Origin: Armatimonadota bacterium
GTDB lineage: Bacteria > Armatimonadota > SYMT01 > JACQGL01
Reading direction: 5' to 3'
DNA: 64,000 nt
NCBI GenBank assembly: GCA_016199525.1
Contig: JACQGL010000048.1
Location: 630 to 64,629, forward strand
Numbering within the stretch: position 1 is the first letter of the stretch; the number at the start of each line of letters is the position of its first letter. Below the pieces are notes generated by a model. The model made no database searches. It saw nothing but the letters and a program-made list of their open reading frames with translations, and was not told the origin of the DNA. The translations under genes were made by a program, and so were the position numbers. Positions 1-8,610 of this stretch are shown in pieces.

Positions 1-1037
1 TCCCACTCGGCCAGCACCCAGTCGGTCTCCTCGTCCCGACCCTTGAGGTAGCGGATGGCAGTCTCCAGGTAGCGACGCTGGAGGTCCACCGCGGGGATGG
101 TCTGGCCATCCGCCCGGCGGGCGAGCCACTGCCAGGCAGGGTCCCGCGAGATCGATTTCAGGGTCTGAATCGGGTCCGCCAGGCGCACGTCCGCCGGCGC
201 CAGATCTTCTTCCACCAGATCCAGCACCAGGCAGGTGGTCCCGACCTTCAGCGCCGTGGCGTAGTCGCTCCGGTTGGCCTCGCCAAAGAGCAAGTGCAGC
301 CGATGGAGGTTGCTGAAGTTGTAGTAGCTATCCCACTTGGGGTTGATGATCGCGCGGTTGAAGCGGACCTTGGAGGCGACGGTCTTCAGGATGTGGTCTG
401 CCCGCTGGGAGAGCTGAAAATCGACCGTCTTGTCGATCTCCACGCCGTAGAAGTTGTGGACCCAGATGTAGTCCACCTCATGCTCCCCCAGCCGTACAAC
501 GTTATTACGAAAGTCCGTGCGGTTGAGGCGGTGGCCGCCTACGCGGCCGGCGCCCGCGAACAGCTGGCGGGTGACCAGGAACGGGAGCAGATAGCTAACG
601 GCGTCTTTGAAGAAATCCTCATCCAGCCGCGCCAGGTAGTTCTCGTGGCAGCCGAAGGTGTGCCCGCCGAAGTGGTCCACGCTGTTGTTGTGGAAGCTCA
701 CCCCCTGGGCGAGGCCCATGTCGTCGAGCGCTCTCTGAAGGAGGCGCAGGCCGGCGCGCTCGTGAGCGGCAATCTCGAAGATGCTGGAGCACTCCGCGGT
801 AGCGTATTCCTCGTGGCTGCCGACGGCATCAATGTAGAGGCGGCCGCCGTTCAGCAAGAACCCCCCCGCACGGGCGGGCTCAAAGGTGTAATCGCGGGCG
901 TGGAGGTCGATCACGCCCATGCGCTGCTGGCAGAAGACGTAGTTCTTCACGTCCTCCACCACTGTTTCGCTGGTGCCCGCCACCGGATCGCGCACCAGGC
1001 ATCCGAACTCGGTTTCAATCCCGAAGATGCGCTGCAT
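1..1037 (-). CDS. pafA: PafA-like Pup/UBact ligase, N-terminal ~345 aa; the gene runs off the window start
   Basis: Absent from the ORF track because it is truncated by the window edge. Hand translation from ATG at 1037 gives MQRIFGIETEFGCLVRDPVAGTSET. Near position 1 it reads ..EETDWVLAEW. It is paralogous to the Dop-like ORF at 3231-4754 (LGLETEYG, AETDGILAEW). It sits downstream of prcBA, as pafA does in Pup-proteasome loci. Confidence 0.85.
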   Translation of the reverse strand, partial: MQRIFGIETEFGCLVRDPVAGTSETVVEDVKNYVFCQQRMGVIDLHARDYTFEPARAGGFLLNGGRLYIDAVGSHEEYATAECSSIFEIAAHERAGLRLLQRALDDMGLAQGVSFHNNSVDHFGGHTFGCHENYLARLDEDFFKDAVSYLLPFLVTRQLFAGAGRVGGHRLNRTDFRNNVVRLGEHEVDYIWVHNFYGVEIDKTVDFQLSQRADHILKTVASKVRFNRAIINPKWDSYYNFSNLHRLHLLFGEANRSDYATALKVGTTCLVLDLVEEDLAPADVRLADPIQTLKSISRDPAWQWLARRADGQTIPAVDLQRRYLETAIRYLKGRDEETDWVLAEW

Positions 1038-1212: not shown

Positions 1213-1989
1213 TTATTCCGCGCCCCGACGATAGTCGGCGACCGCAGGCTCCAGCTCGGCACGGGCGAGCAATCGAAACCGGCTCTCGCGGCGGGAGTGC
1301 CGCTCCAGCAGAGCCGCTTCCAGCGTGCCGGTTGCCAGGGCGTCCTGGAGCACCGCAGCGGCATCACTTGGGCGGGCCGCTTCCTCGTCATCAGGGGCCC
1401 GGCGGGCATGGAGGCGACCCACCGCCCAGGCCTCCAGCGCCAGCCGGAGAGCGGCTTCGCGGCGGGTAGCCTGGTCCACGTGCGCGTGGAGCAGCGCCAG
1501 CATCCGGTTTTCTGCTTCAGAGGCGCCCGCCGCCACGGCATAGAGCGTCTCGCGGCGAAACTCGCCGTCGTAGTTCAGGGTGAAGAACTGATCCGCAGCG
1601 GGAAAATCGCCCAGCTCCGCGAACAGCCCCCGGAACACGAACGGGGCGGAGAAGGGATCTGCGAACGCTCGCTTGATCGCGGGGCTGAGCACTGAGCCTA
1701 CCAGGCGATGGGCGGTCACATCGTCGGGGCTGCGCTGATAACCCTCCCGGTGCGCGAAGTCGATGGCCGCCATGCGCGCCGCTTCCAGGTCCGACTGGTT
1801 GCCAATGCCCCCAAACATCAGACGGTCGTAGATCTCGAAGAGCTTACGCTGGGTCCGGTGCACGGTCACCATCAGTACGCCGTCGGGCAGGCTGAGGGCT
1901 ACCACGGGGCTTCCGTCCCGGAGCCGCTCCTCGATGTAGTCCATCCGCTGCTGGACGGCCTGGTTCCAGTCATAAGGGGTGAATGCCAT
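1213..1989 (-). CDS. prcA: 20S proteasome alpha subunit
   Basis: 258 aa. MAFTPYDWNQAVQQRMDYIEERL..GSPVVAL..LFEIYDRLMFGGIGN is typical of bacterial PrcA. It lies directly downstream of the beta subunit. Confidence 0.9.
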   Translation of the reverse strand: MAFTPYDWNQAVQQRMDYIEERLRDGSPVVALSLPDGVLMVTVHRTQRKLFEIYDRLMFGGIGNQSDLEAARMAAIDFAHREGYQRSPDDVTAHRLVGSVLSPAIKRAFADPFSAPFVFRGLFAELGDFPAADQFFTLNYDGEFRRETLYAVAAGASEAENRMLALLHAHVDQATRREAALRLALEAWAVGRLHARRAPDDEEAARPSDAAAVLQDALATGTLEAALLERHSRRESRFRLLARAELEPAVADYRRGAE

Positions 1990-2137: not shown

Positions 2138-2971
2138 CTACGCCTCACCCTCCGCCCTCCGCCTTCCACCCTCGGCTACCTCCGCCACGGCCTGGCGCAT
2201 CACGTCTATCCCGATATCCACAATCCCCTCGCGGGTGATCGCCCGTGCGATAGGCAGCACCTTGGTGAAGCCGCCGGTGGCGGCGTCCAGATCCGCGGCA
2301 ATATCCAGGAGGATCAGGCACTCCCGCAGGGCCTCGGCCAGCGTCATGGCGCGGAACGGCTTGCGGGTGCGAATGATGTAATCGAACGCGCCGCGGATCC
2401 GTTCCGACCCGGAGCCGGCGGCGCCGAACTCCGCCGTCTCGAAGCGCGCGCCCATCCCATCGTAGAAGAAGATACGCCCTTCGTTGGTCTTCGGATCGTA
2501 GGCGCTGGTGATCGGTAGGAAGGCCCCGATTCCCTGGAGCGCCATCGGCAGGTTTCCGGCGATCGCCCGCGAAACCTCGCTGATCTTCCCCTCCAGGCTC
2601 ATCTCCTGCATCTCGGTGCGTCGGTAGTACTTGAACGCGTGCTGAAGGTAGCGCGCAATCTCCATCCCCCGCGCGAACGAGCCGGAAATGGCCATCAGCG
2701 TGTAGTCATCGAGGGTGATCACCTTCTCGGCACGGTCGAACATCACCGCCATGTTGGCAGTGGCACGGCGGTCACCCAGGTTCAGGACGCCCTCGTTATA
2801 CTTGACGGCGATAACGGTGGTACCGTGTGTGTCCACCACCTCCCCCGCCGTCGGGGAAGATCCCGGGGGGAGTGACGGCACAAGATCGCCCACCAGGTCC
2901 GCAAAGCGCCGCGCCGACGGCGGCCACGGCAGACTTCTTCCGCCGGCTCTGTAATCCTGAATATCGTGCAT
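2138..2971 (-). CDS. prcB: 20S proteasome beta subunit with N-terminal propeptide
   Basis: 277 aa. About 55 aa of propeptide are followed by HG|TTVIAVKYNEGVLNLGDRRAT, giving an Ntn-hydrolase active-site Thr after autoprocessing. Confidence 0.9.
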   Translation of the reverse strand: MHDIQDYRAGGRSLPWPPSARRFADLVGDLVPSLPPGSSPTAGEVVDTHGTTVIAVKYNEGVLNLGDRRATANMAVMFDRAEKVITLDDYTLMAISGSFARGMEIARYLQHAFKYYRRTEMQEMSLEGKISEVSRAIAGNLPMALQGIGAFLPITSAYDPKTNEGRIFFYDGMGARFETAEFGAAGSGSERIRGAFDYIIRTRKPFRAMTLAEALRECLILLDIAADLDAATGGFTKVLPIARAITREGIVDIGIDVMRQAVAEVAEGGRRRAEGEA

Positions 2972-3055
2972 CGCGAAGAGGCTCCGTCGCCACGGGGCGC
3001 AGCGGCCGGGGCGCCATGCCCCGGCCGCGGTTAGAACAGGGCACGCCCGCGCGCA

Positions 3056-3244
3056 CTACTGGCCGCTACGCTGCCGGTAACGGCGCGCCTGGTCGGGATC
3101 TACCCGCCGCATGCGGCGCAGCAGATCGCTTGGGTCCGGCCGGCGGACGTCCGGAGGCTTCGGCCCGCCTTCATCGGCGGGCTTGGTCCACGGCTCGCGC
3201 GGCACCGGCCGCTGGGTCCGTTCTTCTCCTCTAATTTCCAGCAT
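3056..3244 (-). CDS. pup: Prokaryotic ubiquitin-like modifier of the Pup/UBact type, 62 aa
   Basis: Small ORF located between dop and prcB. It ends ..DPDQARRYRQRSGQ with a C-terminal Gln. GGAGGG lies 8 nt upstream of the ATG at 3244. The start overlaps the dop stop by 14 nt. It lacks the acidic character and GGQ end of actinobacterial Pup and matches my recollection of the UBact C-terminus (R-S/T-G-E/Q). Confidence 0.8.
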   Translation of the reverse strand: MLEIRGEERTQRPVPREPWTKPADEGGPKPPDVRRPDPSDLLRRMRRVDPDQARRYRQRSGQ

Positions 3245-4754
3245 CTTTTTTCCCTCCCCTCACCAGCTCGATCCACTCGGCCAGTGTCGCCGCTTCCGGC
3301 AGGCGACGGTTCAAATGGACGACCTTCCCATCCACCAGGGCGCGCAGATCCACCCAGTGCGTCCGCTCCTCAACGCGCAGACCGATCCGCCCCCACCCGA
3401 TCCGCTGAACGGCGGTCCCGAACCGTCGGACGCAATCCCCACGCACATAGGCGCGCGTATCCGCGGGTGGCTGCACCAGTGCGCTCTGGATGTCCGTTTC
3501 TTCGACCACGCGCCGCAGACGACCTTCTTCCACCAGGGCCGCGTGCAGGCCGTAATCGGGATCGATATTGTGGTACTCCAGGTCCAGGCTGCGCAGGAGC
3601 TCGCCCTCCCACGAAAGGTGCTCGGCCTCAAGATAAGTTTCCAACAAAACGCGCTTCGCCGCCCAATCGAGCCGATCCGCGGTGGACAGCGGATTGGCGT
3701 CAAGATCATCCAGCACCCGCGCCCACTCGGCCAGAATCCCATCCGTTTCCGCGTCCGCGCCCGCGAAGCAGCGGCGCGCCTCCGAGAGGTAGAGGCGCTG
3801 AAGATCGGTGGCGCGCATGGTGCGCCCGTCCTCTCGCTCCACCAGCCAGCGGTATTCGGGATCGCGCGACAGGCGACGGATGGCCTCTGTGGGCCGGCGC
3901 ACGCGGAAGAGCGGCTGCCACCCCAGCTCACACAACGCCAGCACCAGGGAAGTGCTGCCCACCTTCAGGGCGGTGGCAAACTCGGAAAGATTGGCGTCCC
4001 CGCAGATCACGTGCAGCCGCAGGTAACGCTGCGGATCGGCGTGCGGCTCGTCACGCGTGTTCAGGAGCGGCCGGCGATGGAGGGTGTCCACACTGGCCTC
4101 TTCGGTGAAGAAATCCGCCCGCTGGGAGAGCTGGTAGGGCGTTTCCGGCCAGGGGCCGTCCGTCTCGACTCCCACCTTGCCCGCGCCGGTAAAAATCGTA
4201 CGCGTCACGAAGAACGGCACGAGAGCAGCGTGGAGCCGTTCGAACGGGACGTCCCGCGGCACGAGGTAATCCTCGTGGCAGCCATAGGACATCCCGTGGA
4301 AATCCGTATTATTCTTGTAAATCTGGATGTGGGACCCGGTTTCCTGGCTGCGGCGGCGGGCGCAGGCGAGGACGATCCGCTCGCCCGCCCGGTCGTGCGC
4401 CACAAGGTCACGCAGCGTGAGGCACTCGGGCGTGGCATATTCGGGGTGGCCGTGATCGTTGTATAGTCGCGCGCCGTTGGTGAGCACCCGGTCGCTCCGC
4501 TGCTCCTCATGGGAAACGGCCGGCCGGCCGGGGTGATCGTAAAGTGCGTCCTGCGGATTGCTGGCCAGCTGGTCCACACGGAAACCGCGCAAGTCGCGGC
4601 GGGGGTCCTCGCAGCGGTAATCCCAGGGGCCGGCGCAGGTTCCCGCGTAGGCGCGCACCACGGCGCGGGCCTCGTCCAGCAGATCTGCGGCCCCCTTGCC
4701 TTCCACATGAATCCCGTATTCGGTTTCCAGGCCCAGTAAGCGCGCGGGAAACAT
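3231..4754 (-). CDS. dop: Dop-like deamidase/depupylase (Pup-ligase/deamidase family)
   Basis: 507 aa. MFPARLLGLETEYGIHVEG.., ..ARLYNDHGHPEYATPEC.. It lies immediately upstream of the modifier gene, as dop does in Mycobacterium. The Dop versus PafA assignment is by position only. Confidence 0.85.
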   Translation of the reverse strand: MFPARLLGLETEYGIHVEGKGAADLLDEARAVVRAYAGTCAGPWDYRCEDPRRDLRGFRVDQLASNPQDALYDHPGRPAVSHEEQRSDRVLTNGARLYNDHGHPEYATPECLTLRDLVAHDRAGERIVLACARRRSQETGSHIQIYKNNTDFHGMSYGCHEDYLVPRDVPFERLHAALVPFFVTRTIFTGAGKVGVETDGPWPETPYQLSQRADFFTEEASVDTLHRRPLLNTRDEPHADPQRYLRLHVICGDANLSEFATALKVGSTSLVLALCELGWQPLFRVRRPTEAIRRLSRDPEYRWLVEREDGRTMRATDLQRLYLSEARRCFAGADAETDGILAEWARVLDDLDANPLSTADRLDWAAKRVLLETYLEAEHLSWEGELLRSLDLEYHNIDPDYGLHAALVEEGRLRRVVEETDIQSALVQPPADTRAYVRGDCVRRFGTAVQRIGWGRIGLRVEERTHWVDLRALVDGKVVHLNRRLPEAATLAEWIELVRGGKKDAGN

Positions 4755-5110: not shown

Positions 5111-6142
5111 TCACGGCACTGCCTGGTTCAGCTTGCGCTGCGCCCTTACCTTTGCTTCCTCGTCGTTCAGTGTCAGTACCCTTGCCCACAACTCTCGCGC
5201 CCCGGTAGTGTCACCGGCTTCATCCAGAGCTGCGCCCAGCTCATAACAATACTCGCCATTCTCGGGATCAAGCTCGACGGCTTTTCGTAATTCGGAGAGC
5301 GCCTCCTCTACCTGACCCTTGTCCTTCAGCAGCCGCCCAAGCCTGTAGTGTGGTAGTTCCCTGAAGTACCCGAAGTACTCTATGCACTCACTCGGCTCCA
5401 GAATGATCTCTTCGTCCGGGATAGCAATAGCCGAACGATAGGCTGCCATTGCCTCGTCCTTGCGCTGGGCATCCTCCAGGGCCTCACCCAAGTTGTAGTA
5501 TGCATGAAAATGGGTAGGGTCCAAACGGATCGCCTCACGGTAGGCCGCTATCGCTTCGTTCAGCTCGCCGGCATCATGATAGGCGCCACCGAGGTTGAGG
5601 TACCAGTCTGGATTGGAAGGGTCCAGTTGAACGGCCTCACGGTGTTCCGCAATCGCCTCCTCGAAATGGCCTGACTGCCTGAGAGCAAGACCCAGACGAT
5701 GATGCGTCCAGGGATCGGCTGGATCAGCACGAACCATCTCCCGGAATACAACGATAGCCTCACCAAGCTTGCCCGCTTTTTCCAATGCCCAACCCAGTTG
5801 GAGTAGTAATTCTGGTTTATCGGGATTAAGTCTAATCGCTTCCCGATACTCACGCACTGCGTCCTCTAGTTGGCCGCTTTCGGAGAGAGCAAAACCAATT
5901 CGAAGATGGCCCAGCTCCAGCTCCGGTTGGTCAGGATCAAGCTTGATTGCTTTGCGATACTCGTCGAGTGCCTCCTCACGGCGATCGACTACATACAGAA
6001 TGTTAGCAAGTCGAATGTGGGCCAGTGCCAGCTCCGGTTTCAAACGACTGGCCTCCTGTAGCTCGGTGATCGCCTCCACCAGCCGATTCTCTTCCATCAA
6101 GTCGGCGGCGCGTCTCAAGTACTCATCATAGGGATCGGTCAT
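5111..6142 (-). CDS. Tetratricopeptide-repeat (TPR) protein
   Basis: 343 aa built of tandem ~34-aa repeats (..EEAIxxYREAIRLDPxxxxAxxNLGxAL..). GC content is visibly lower than in its neighbours. Confidence 0.85.
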   Translation of the reverse strand: MTDPYDEYLRRAADLMEENRLVEAITELQEASRLKPELALAHIRLANILYVVDRREEALDEYRKAIKLDPDQPELELGHLRIGFALSESGQLEDAVREYREAIRLNPDKPELLLQLGWALEKAGKLGEAIVVFREMVRADPADPWTHHRLGLALRQSGHFEEAIAEHREAVQLDPSNPDWYLNLGGAYHDAGELNEAIAAYREAIRLDPTHFHAYYNLGEALEDAQRKDEAMAAYRSAIAIPDEEIILEPSECIEYFGYFRELPHYRLGRLLKDKGQVEEALSELRKAVELDPENGEYCYELGAALDEAGDTTGARELWARVLTLNDEEAKVRAQRKLNQAVP

Positions 6143-6169
6143 AGTTATAAAACATAGCCGCTTTGCAGG

Positions 6170-6455
6170 CTACATCGATACATACTGCGGACCCAATGCG
6201 CTGCGCCGCCTCTGTAAGCCTGGCGCTTGTACGGTTTGCAGCTGGGTATCAACCAAACGCCACAACAGCCCGCCTGGGGCCCAGCGCTGGGTCTGCTGAT
6301 AAACCGTCTCCCAGGGCGGTCCCGAAAGCTTTCGGGATGCGGCATCATCCTCCAGGAGGCGCCTCCTCGCGGACGAGGGCCAGATACGGGGCCACAAAAG
6401 CCCACTCTTCGTTACTTACATCACTCGGGTGAGGTTTACGGGTCAGTTTCGGCAT
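6170..6455 (-). pseudogene. Truncated and frameshifted IS5-family transposase remnant (DUF4096-type N-terminus only)
   Basis: Hand translation from ATG at 6455 gives MPKLTRKPHPSDVSNEEWAFVAPYLALVREEAPPGG*. A second frame then reads ..SGPPWETVYQQTQRWAPGGLLWRL... These are the conserved N-terminal motifs of IS5/IS4-like DDE transposases. The DDE catalytic domain is missing. Confidence 0.6.
6320..6337. repeat. Perfect 18-nt palindrome of the same family (inside the IS remnant)
   Basis: TCCCGAAAGCTTTCGGGA. The 17-mer CCCGAAAGCTTTCGGGA recurs exactly at 55239-55255. Confidence 0.5.
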
Positions 6456-6750
6456 GCCCACATACTACCATCCCGAACCCAGAGTTCATAACACCCTTCA
6501 GGGCGTGGCTCAGGGCAGCTTCTGACTCCTGCACTCTGTCTAAGTAGCAGCTCAAAAGTCCTCGCAGGCGGCTGGCCCGCCCGTAGGCGCGACCGGCCGC
6601 AAAGACTTCTGACCACCTACTTAGTGCACGTAGCCTGAACCCGGGCTGTGTATCATCGTCGAGGAACTGGAGGACTTCGGGGGTTATCATCGGCGACGGC
6701 TAAGGTGATCGTAACACACGGCCCCGGCCGCGGTACTGCTGCCAAGACGG

Positions 6751-8496
6751 CTACACCACTCCCCGGCGGGGGTTTGGGCCGGAGCGATCTGCGCGGATCG
6801 GCCGCACAGTTACCACGTTCTCCGGCTCGTAATCCAGCAGCTTCAGCCAGTCCTCCTGGGTATCGGACTTAGGGAAGATCTCGTTCTCTTTGTACTCCAG
6901 CCGGATGGCACGCTGGAGGTCCTCCAGGCTAACCCCTTCCTCCAGGTTGCCGGTGTCTATCGCCCGGCGAATAGCCAGGTCCTTGGCACGCTCCACCACG
7001 GACATCAGCAGCGCCCCCGAGGTGAGGTTCCGCCAGTAGAGCCGCTCCACACTGCCGTTGCGCAGGTGCACCTCCACGAACTCTGTTTCCTCCTCGCGCC
7101 GCCAGAGGTAGCGGATCGCCTCCTCGATCAGGGCCTCCCGCGCCGCCTCGGGGCCGCCGTGCTTGCGGACGGCAGCGGCATCCAGGGGGATCTGCGGGTG
7201 CAGGTAGATGCCCAGGATTTCTTTGCTGGCCCTCCGGTCCGGCCGCCCCACCTTTGCCTTGCGATCGATCCGCCCCGGCCGGAGGATGGCAGGGTCGATA
7301 TAGTCCGGGCGGTTGGAGGTGAGCAGCACGACGACGTTCTCCAGGGAAACCAGGCCGTCCATCTCCGCCGCGAACTGGGGCACCACGGTGTTGGAGATAT
7401 TCAGCCACCGGCCGGAGCTGCGCGTCCGCAGCAAAGATTCCGCCTCGTCGATAAACACGAAGACGAGGTAGCCTTCGCGCGCCTTCTCGCGCGCCTGGGC
7501 AAAGATCTCCCGCACCATGCGCTCGCTTTCTCCGAGCCACATGTTGAGGATCTTCGGGCCGCTGATGTACATGAAGTACTCTTTAACCTCGCGGCCGTGG
7601 CGCTGACCATACTCGCGCGTGAGGTTGTAAGCGGTCGCCTTGCCGATCAGCGTCTTACCGCAGCCCGGGGGACCGTAGAGAAGGATCCCTTTGAGCGGCT
7701 TCTTTTCGAAGCGGGCGTAGAGTTCGGGGTGCAGCAGAGGGAGCTCGATGGTATCCCGAATCAGCTGGATGACCTCTTCCTGGCCGCCCACCTTCTCCCA
7801 GGGGATGTCGGGCACTTCCTCCAGGTAGTAATTGCGGATTTCTCGCTGCGGGAAGTGCTCCAGCGCCACGCGGAAGCAGGGATCCATCCGTATCTCGTCC
7901 GCCACTTTGAGAGGGGTATCGGCCAGATCGGCGCTGCGCACCACCACCCGGCCGCTCTGCCCCATTGCATCCAGAGAGACGCGCAGTCGCCCACCCTCCA
8001 GGAGCTCGGCAATCTTGACGATGGGGCCCTGCGTGGCATAGCCCAGGTCCCCGACAATGGCGTAGGCGTCGTTCAGCTTGATGCGCGTACCCACCTTGAG
8101 GGAAGCGGCGTTCAGCTTGGGGTCGATATTACTGATGAATTCCACATCCCCCAGCGCGACGCTGGCGACGCTCTCTTCTAGCAGCCCAAGGAACGTGCCC
8201 ACGCGGTTGGCCGGCGAGGTGAGTTTCTGGTAAGCTTCCTCATATTCGGCGATCAGCTTTTGCGCTTCCTGAAACTGCCGCTCGTCCACCTCCAGCTGGT
8301 GGCGTAGCAGCAACAGGTACTGGCGCACCCGCGGGTCTTCGTTGGTGGCAGATTGAAGAATGCGATCCAGCAGGCTGAGCGCGCGGAAGGCGGTCTCCGG
8401 ACCACGGGGGCCCGCCTCATCTTCCTGCCACCAGGCGCTGTGGCGCTCTTCACGGGGATCGCGCGGCTCGTGGTAGCGATCATCTCGCTTGGACAC
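6751..8496 (-). CDS. mpa: Proteasome-associated AAA+ ATPase (Mpa/ARC)
   Basis: 581 aa with a GTG start. It has an N-terminal coiled coil (QFQEAQKLIAEYEEAYQKL), an OB-like region and Walker A GPPGCGKTLIGKA, followed by ..FIDEAESL.. and ..SNRPDYIDPAILRPGRIDRK. Confidence 0.9.
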   Translation of the reverse strand: MSKRDDRYHEPRDPREERHSAWWQEDEAGPRGPETAFRALSLLDRILQSATNEDPRVRQYLLLLRHQLEVDERQFQEAQKLIAEYEEAYQKLTSPANRVGTFLGLLEESVASVALGDVEFISNIDPKLNAASLKVGTRIKLNDAYAIVGDLGYATQGPIVKIAELLEGGRLRVSLDAMGQSGRVVVRSADLADTPLKVADEIRMDPCFRVALEHFPQREIRNYYLEEVPDIPWEKVGGQEEVIQLIRDTIELPLLHPELYARFEKKPLKGILLYGPPGCGKTLIGKATAYNLTREYGQRHGREVKEYFMYISGPKILNMWLGESERMVREIFAQAREKAREGYLVFVFIDEAESLLRTRSSGRWLNISNTVVPQFAAEMDGLVSLENVVVLLTSNRPDYIDPAILRPGRIDRKAKVGRPDRRASKEILGIYLHPQIPLDAAAVRKHGGPEAAREALIEEAIRYLWRREEETEFVEVHLRNGSVERLYWRNLTSGALLMSVVERAKDLAIRRAIDTGNLEEGVSLEDLQRAIRLEYKENEIFPKSDTQEDWLKLLDYEPENVVTVRPIRADRSGPNPRRGVV

Positions 8497-8610
8497 GGGA
8501 CTCTCCAGGCAATAAACAAAAACGGCCTACCGTAGAGGCCATGCAGTCTACCAGCATTATCCCTCGGGCGGCGCGCGGCGTCAACCGGGGGTGAGGGGGG
8601 AGCATCCACC

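Follow-up and report, generated by a model that had tools for sequence, protein, structure and literature searches.

A member of the UBact family encoded in a proteasome operon of an Armatimonadota bacterium

Introduction

UBact is a Pup-like small protein modifier of Gram-negative phyla, including Armatimonadota, Verrucomicrobiota, Nitrospirota, and others. It is not known from Actinobacteria. It was described in 2017 by bioinformatic means (Lehmann, Udasin, Livneh and Ciechanover, BBRC 483:946, as cited in PMC12751074 and PMC5751360). Pup-like proteins of 50-90 amino acids had already been reported in nitrospirae, verrucomicrobia, and planctomycetes (Iyer, Burroughs and Aravind, 2008; PMC2588565). 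These end in G[EQ], have a bihelical core, and are encoded next to PafA paralogs and proteasome genes (PMC2588565). The locus described here has the same architecture. Armatimonadota were unsampled in 2008, and the proteins were treated then as Pup orthologs and not as a separate family (PMC2588565).

The Pup system itself has been examined structurally. When bound in the groove of Dop or PafA, Pup adopts two orthogonal helices (PMC8599861). On the coiled coil of the ATPase Mpa, it forms a single 30-residue helix that spans residues 21-51 (PMC8755798). Mpa of Mtb docks on the alpha ring of the 20S proteasome through the motif GQYL, which has a penultimate Tyr (PMC8755798). The window, which is the whole stretch of 64,000 nucleotides that was analyzed, contains an operon with homologs of Dop, PafA, Mpa, and the 20S proteasome subunits and a small open reading frame (ORF) among them. 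The features of this operon are given in Table 1.

Table 1. Features of the UBact operon in the window, in order of transcription
Feature	Position	Strand	Description	Basis
Mpa/ARC-like proteasomal AAA ATPase	6751..8496	(-)	581 aa	TIGR03689, PF17758, PF16450, PF00004
TPR-repeat protein	5111..6142	(-)	Between Mpa and Dop	TPR families only
Dop-like deamidase/depupylase homolog	3231..4754	(-)	507 aa	PF03136, TIGR03688
Shine-Dalgarno-like GGAGGG	3252..3257	(-)	7 nt 5' of the UBact ATG, within the dop 3' end	Read from the sequence
UBact gene	3056..3244	(-)	62 aa, C-terminus RQRSGQ, terminal codon CAG	PF20513, NF033388, 110 homologs
GC hairpin	3002..3028	(-)	Perfect 11-bp stem GCGGCCGGGGC/GCCCCGGCCGC, 5-nt loop	Inverted repeat I2
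20S proteasome beta subunit PrcB	2138..2971	(-)	Propeptide, HG/TTV processing site (cut between G and T)	PF00227, TIGR03690
20S proteasome alpha subunit PrcA	1213..1989	(-)		TIGR03691, weak PF00227, synteny in related loci
PafA-like ligase paralog	1..1037	(-)	N-terminal 345 aa, gene continues past the window start

The UBact Gene and Its Family

The small ORF translates as MLEIRGEERTQRPVPREPWTKPADEGGPKPPDVRRPDPSDLLRRMRRVDPDQARRYRQRSGQ, followed by its stop codon. It contains 14 Arg and 2 Lys (R+K = 16) and 6 Asp and 5 Glu (D+E = 11). From the sequence, the pI is calculated as 11.0 and the charge at pH 7 as +4.5, or a net +5 by residue count. The C-terminal segment is ...RRMRRVDPDQARRYRQRSGQ. 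The initial annotation had described a basic protein (16 against 11) that ends in RQRSGQ, and both statements proved exact on recount. In the reading frame of the ORF, a TGA is found five codons 5' of the ATG at 3244 with no start codon between them. Thus, this ATG is the sole start that retains the conserved N-terminal block, GEERxQRP.

The ORF was matched by two curated models. Pfam PF20513 gave 73.4 bits (cut-off 27.8), an E-value of 1.2e-20, and coverage of profile positions 2-43 of 43. The NCBIfam equivalog NF033388 gave 72.7 bits (cut-off 35) over positions 2-54 of 54. A search of 5.8 billion clustered proteins identified 110 homologs, and PF20513 was found in all of them. Those that carry a name are called "ubiquitin-like protein UBact" and come from Armatimonadota, Fimbriimonadaceae, and Chthonomonadales. 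The alignment of the 110 homologs has 13 invariant columns. Since both models are matched far over their cut-offs and the homologs share these columns, the ORF is, on this evidence, a genuine gene rather than a chance reading frame. The window has a GC content of 65%, and many long spurious ORFs overlap its genuine genes, which is what a chance ORF, or a true gene in another frame or with another start, would have in its favor. Against it stand the two model matches, with E-values of about 1e-20, the 110 homologs, which match the ORF in length and conserve both of its termini, and the in-frame stop ahead of the ATG. The probability that remains for this explanation is negligible, and a spurious ORF or a different frame is ruled out by the model matches, the homologs, and the conserved termini. 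The initial annotation had also considered that homologs might use another frame or start that lacks the conserved C-terminus; this is not the case, as the 110 homologs conserve the frame.

The C-terminus RQR[ST]G[EQ] is present in 110 of 110 homologs, with SGE in 70, SGQ in 32, TGE in 7, and TGQ in 1. The net charge lies between +1 and +8 in every homolog, with a median of +5. For the wider family, 1.84 billion representatives were searched exhaustively with a profile, which gave 197 clusters at 50% identity (E <= 0.001). Among the representatives listed, about 120 end in [ST]G[EQ], including YRQRTGQ (63), YRQRTGE (27), YRQRSGE (13), and YRQRSGQ (10). The last 45 residues of the listed representatives have a median net charge of +5. 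No protein ending in GG[QE] was found, either in the set of 110 close homologs or in the representatives listed for the wider family. Because all 110 homologs are basic with RQR[ST]G[EQ] and the listed wider family is without GG[QE], the basic charge and the [ST]-G are the signature of UBact and not an oddity. The initial annotation had presented the basic charge and the S-G in place of G-G as peculiarities of this locus, which is not borne out. It had also suggested an alignment with the UBact family, and the matches to PF20513 and NF033388 identify the ORF as UBact.

The window protein shares with UBact its length, a proline-rich N-terminal half, the net basic charge, and the invariant C-terminus ...LLxRMRRVDPxxAxxYRQR[ST]G[EQ]. 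As elsewhere in the family, its gene stands downstream of a Dop-like gene and upstream of prcB/prcA, in an operon that also includes Mpa and PafA. The window copy ends in Gln, whereas the 12 closest homologs end in Glu. No substantive difference from UBact was found, and the closest protein in the database is 87% identical. Each feature examined (the HMM matches, the C-terminal signature, the small, basic, and unstructured character, the operon partners, and the relatives in Armatimonadota) is that of UBact. Judged by these features, the ORF belongs to UBact as an ordinary member that automatic annotation would recognize, and it is not a new kind of modifier.

Organization of the Operon

The genes are transcribed from the minus strand in the order Mpa, TPR, Dop, UBact, PrcB, PrcA, and PafA, and the five partner genes lie within 8.5 kb. 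The earlier claim of a Pup-type small modifier directly after a Dop-like gene is borne out by both the HMMs and this operon. PrcB scored 138 bits on TIGR03690, which is below its cut-off, and it keeps the G/T processing site. PrcA scored 81.8 bits on TIGR03691, also below the cut-off, with a weak match to PF00227. The homologs of Dop, Mpa, PrcA, and PrcB all lie under the actinobacterial equivalog cut-offs of NCBIfam.

Related loci were surveyed with one genome per species. A relative of UBact was found in at least 546 species-level genomes, and the best 80 of these were examined. They are mostly from Armatimonadota, with some from Verrucomicrobiota. A Dop homolog is directly upstream of UBact in 70 of the best 80 loci, and PrcB and PrcA are downstream in nearly all of them. 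The full order Mpa-Dop-UBact-PrcB-PrcA-PafA was found in most of the best 80 loci that have enough flanking sequence. The closest of the 80 (L001, an Armatimonadota MAG) has identities to the window of 73% for Mpa, 80.5% for PafA, 76% for PrcB, and 60.5% for Dop. These values place the window in an Armatimonadota-like organism with no close relative among the species representatives.

A different arrangement was observed in Chthoniobacterales/Spartobacteria (L033, L040, L049, L055, L064, L069, L076, and L079), where UBact ends in RQRTG[QE] and is followed by prcB and prcA. Homologs of Dop, PafA, and Mpa were not found in these loci by tblastn at 1e-5 in flanks of up to 10 kb on each side. These enzymes are therefore presumably encoded elsewhere in those genomes. 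UBact loci were also seen in MAGs labeled as Synechococcus, Janthinobacterium, Thermotogae, Chloroflexota, or Bipolaricaulota (L032, L073, L075, L008, and L078). These labels may be errors of binning or labeling, or UBact may be spread more widely than the phyla that are usually listed.

The window locus differs from other UBact loci in having a TPR gene and the remnant of an insertion sequence between Mpa and Dop. The GC content of the TPR gene is 0.559, compared with about 0.65 in the neighboring genes. Next to it, at approximately 6200..6455 (-), is the frameshifted remnant of the N-terminus of an IS4/5-family transposase (DUF4096, 25.5 bits, E-value 1.6e-5, below the cut-off). A TPR homolog between Mpa and Dop was found in 0 of 80 related loci. 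Thus, the TPR gene and the remnant (5111..6750 (-)) appear to have been inserted locally, splitting the operon, and the TPR protein is probably not part of the UBact system.

The initial annotation had noted that UBact overlaps dop by 14 nt and has its own GGAGGG, and the coordinates were confirmed, with the stop of the Dop-like ORF at 3233..3231 and the UBact ATG at 3244. Overlaps of dop and UBact are present in 30 of 70 related loci, mostly of 1, 4, 14, 17, or 28 nt. Gaps of 0-50 nt are present in a further 13, so that an overlap or a gap of at most 50 nt is found in 43 of 70. These counts depend on a heuristic choice of start, which probably also produced, as artefacts, the four values of -100 or less. 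The three nearest loci have overlaps of 26, 20, and 14 nt. Since such close juxtaposition is common in the family, it is reasonable to suppose that dop and UBact are translationally coupled, and this is plausible for the window as well.

The GC hairpin listed in Table 1 lies within the 84-nt spacer that separates the UBact stop from the prcB start and has no T-run. The fold of this spacer is not exceptional when compared with GC-matched shuffles (z = -1.47). The hairpin is not put forward as a terminator, as it lacks the T-run and its fold is indistinguishable from what its composition gives. The hairpin could attenuate read-through or stabilize the UBact message. RNA genes were not found in the whole window by Rfam and tRNA scans. 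A promoter-like site at 8584..8556 (-), upstream of Mpa, is of a kind that occurs at chance frequency.

Dop-Like and PafA-Like Enzymes

The protein encoded upstream of UBact matched Pup_ligase (PF03136) with 531 bits. Against NCBIfam, it scored 457 bits on the Dop model TIGR03688 (cut-off 492) and 356 bits on the PafA model, both below the equivalog cut-offs. Against the PDB, it scored 398 bits on Dop of Acidothermus (5lrt/4b0r) and 230 bits on PafA (4b0t). Its alignment retains the GhExE motif (as GLETE), R-L-Y-x-D-H-x-H-P-E-Y with the catalytic Asp, and the Dop-loop WD[FY] with its Trp. The roles of these residues follow PMC8599861 and PMC2588565. At the Dop-loop, the protein is about 30 residues longer than the PafA-like paralog in the window, and the two paralogs are 37% identical. 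By these scores and motifs, the upstream gene is Dop-like and not PafA-like.

The translation of the PafA-like paralog begins MQRIFGIETEFG... and its 345 residues in the window scored 204.7 bits on the PafA model and 184.7 bits on the Dop model. As its 345 residues reach only 205 bits against the actinobacterial model of PafA, the protein is, by this measure, a divergent ligase. Compared with the Dop paralog, it also has about 28 additional residues, inserted around HRLNRTDFRNNVVRLGEHEVDYIWVHNFYGVEIDKTVDF.

Under the Pup paradigm, a C-terminal Gln would need to be deamidated. This point of the initial annotation is supported. It had further been proposed that the neighboring Dop fits the Gln ending of the window protein. 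The terminal residue is Gln in 38 and Glu in 42 of the best 80 loci. In the 70 loci with Dop directly upstream, 32 of the UBact proteins end in Gln and 38 end in Glu. Dop is found beside both kinds, and thus its presence is no specific match to the Gln ending. Dop would also strip the tag, as it does in Actinobacteria.

Comparison with Pup

UBact and Pup are both small, mostly disordered tags with a terminal G-[QE]. The genes for both adjoin Dop and prcBA, and PafA and Mpa are close by. The charge is reversed, however. UBact has a net charge of +5, whereas Mtb Pup has 7 R+K and 19 D+E, a pI of 4.05, and a net charge of about -12. Before the last residue, the window UBact has the S/T-G of its family and Pup has G-G.

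The Pup model (PF05639) did not match the UBact ORF in the Pfam scan at E <= 10, where the only matches were to UBact and, weakly, to DUF3563. A profile search of the PDB with the UBact alignment gave 0 matches at E <= 10, although the PDB includes chains of Pup, and no solved UBact was found there. When UBact was aligned with Mtb Pup by hhalign, its residues 36-62 were placed collinearly on residues 34-64 of Pup with a probability of 1.8%, so that this alignment serves to guide positions but does not prove homology. It pairs DLLRRMRRV of UBact with DLLDEIDDV of Pup and RRYRQRSGQ with RAYVQKGGQ, again at a probability of 1.8%. In this non-significant alignment, the hydrophobic positions of the C-terminus are collinear (DLLxxhxxV ... 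RxYxQ+xGQ). The four acidic positions of helix 1 in Pup, D-E-x-D-D, are R-R-x-R-R in UBact. As a relation between sequences, homology of UBact and Pup is not supported statistically. Three features of Pup are missing from UBact, namely the match to the model, the GG[QE] ending, and an acidic, helix-forming center. Two others are present, as the gene adjoins dop and prcBA and a terminal Gln/Glu is available for ligation through the gamma-carboxylate.

The structure of UBact was predicted with AF2 from the family alignment (pLDDT 73.8, pTM 0.27). Residues 1-37 have no secondary structure in the model, and two helices are predicted at 38-45 and 50-60. This shape agrees with the bihelical unit and extended tail that were predicted for Pup-like proteins (PMC2588565). 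The predicted two-helix module also resembles the pair of helices seen for Pup when it is bound to Dop or PafA (PMC8599861). A Foldseek search of the model against the PDB gave 0 matches, which is uninformative since the peptide is too small and non-globular.

The Mpa-Like ATPase

The Mpa homolog scored 457 bits on TIGR03689 (cut-off 505) and 339 bits on Mtb Mpa (5kwa). It has an N-terminal coiled coil, a double OB domain, an AAA module, and the C-terminus RRGVV. The coiled coil just before the OB domain was observed to be far more conserved than the N-terminal 40 residues (8380..8496 (-)). Its segment at residues 45-99 is nearly invariant across the Armatimonadota and strongly conserved in 40 UBact loci, with the consensus ...LLLLRHQLEvDExQ..EAQ..IAEYEEAY.KLTSPANR.

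The counterpart of the Pup helix in UBact, residues 23-53, contains six prolines, P28, P30, P31, P36, P38, and P50. P28 and P50 are invariant, and P31 and P36 are conserved at 90% or more. In Pup, the corresponding stretch is the 30-residue Mpa-binding helix (PMC8755798), and because the prolines are conserved, such a helix is ruled out for UBact. Thus, the steps of recognition and degradation may not transfer directly from Pup. It is plausible from the prolines that recognition by the ATPase is unlike that of Pup, as the initial annotation had suggested, and that this is a trait of the whole UBact family and not of the window locus.

The Mpa homologs linked to UBact also end differently from Mpa of the Pup system. 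A C-terminus without Tyr, [RK][RK]x[IV][IV], was found in 43 of 44 loci, as RRNVI or RRNII, and the window protein ends in RRGVV (6751..6800 (-)). The actinobacterial motif of the GQYL/HbYX type is absent, in the window protein as well.

The charge of the coiled coil was also considered. Over 40 UBact loci, the median net charge is -4, compared with -1 in the window. Mtb Mpa likewise has a value of -1. As the window and Mtb Mpa have the same value, the charge argument is weak, and complementarity of the coiled coil to a basic tag is suggestive at most.

Taken across the family, a short basic helix of UBact could be read by a mildly acidic coiled coil, and the ATPase could dock through [RK][RK]x[IV][IV] and not through GQYL. 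This is put forward tentatively, at rather less than even confidence. If true, it would be a distinct solution for recognition and docking across the entire UBact family and would not be specific to this locus.

The same two features, the [RK][RK]x[IV][IV] end in 43 of 44 loci in place of GQYL with its penultimate Tyr (PMC8755798) and the six prolines that prevent the 30-residue helix, can also be read in another way. UBact could be conjugated by PafA and Dop, with the tag serving mainly for regulation or remodeling by the ATPase rather than for proteasomal degradation. Pupylation in Corynebacterium, which lacks a 20S proteasome, would be a likeness for this. Such a role appears unlikely here, as the genes immediately after UBact are prcB and prcA in almost all of the best 80 loci, Mpa is in the same operon, and PrcB retains the processing site of its catalytic Thr. 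The tight linkage of UBact, prcB, prcA, and Mpa argues for a proteasomal role.

Proposed Pathway

The ORF is, with high confidence, an ordinary UBact ortholog in a canonical operon, and we infer its tagging mechanism by Dop, PafA, Mpa, and PrcAB from homology to the Pup-proteasome system. UBact would be made with a C-terminal Gln and would be mostly disordered. The upstream Dop homolog would deamidate Gln62 to Glu. The PafA homolog would then phosphorylate the gamma-carboxylate with ATP and ligate UBact to the lysine side chains of its targets. In both enzymes, the two short C-terminal helices of UBact, at residues 38-48 and 50-60, would dock in the groove, so that the RSGQ tail could reach the active site. 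The Mpa-like ATPase would recognize the tag, thread its disordered N-terminal half, and feed the substrate to the PrcAB 20S core, where the tagged substrate would be degraded. Removal of the tag by Dop would be possible as well. What the analysis itself demonstrates is the membership of the family, the context of the operon, the catalytic motifs conserved in Dop and PrcB, and the two-helix C-terminal module as a prediction, whereas we infer deamidation, ligation, recognition by the ATPase, and degradation.

It is also conceivable that UBact is not covalently attached at all. It could instead act non-covalently on the ATPase or the proteasome, as a small cofactor, adaptor, or assembly factor, with its C-terminus as a docking peptide. 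A docking peptide would be in keeping with the last 25 residues being so extremely conserved, and an experimental demonstration of UBact conjugation, deamidation, or degradation was not found in the literature searched. This is nevertheless a very improbable reading. The invariant G-[EQ] end, with a free single-base interchange of Q and E even among close relatives, is what ligation through the gamma-carboxylate predicts, and UBact is flanked by two paralogs of the Pup-ligase fold with intact catalytic motifs.

Significance for the UBact Family

The window locus offers a complete and compact set of genes for reconstitution, except that PafA is cut by the edge of the window. Standard annotation would name the window gene "ubiquitin-like protein UBact," and the features that had been flagged are the norm of its family. 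The finding thus matters little for this window. The interest that remains is in the biochemistry of the UBact family as a whole.
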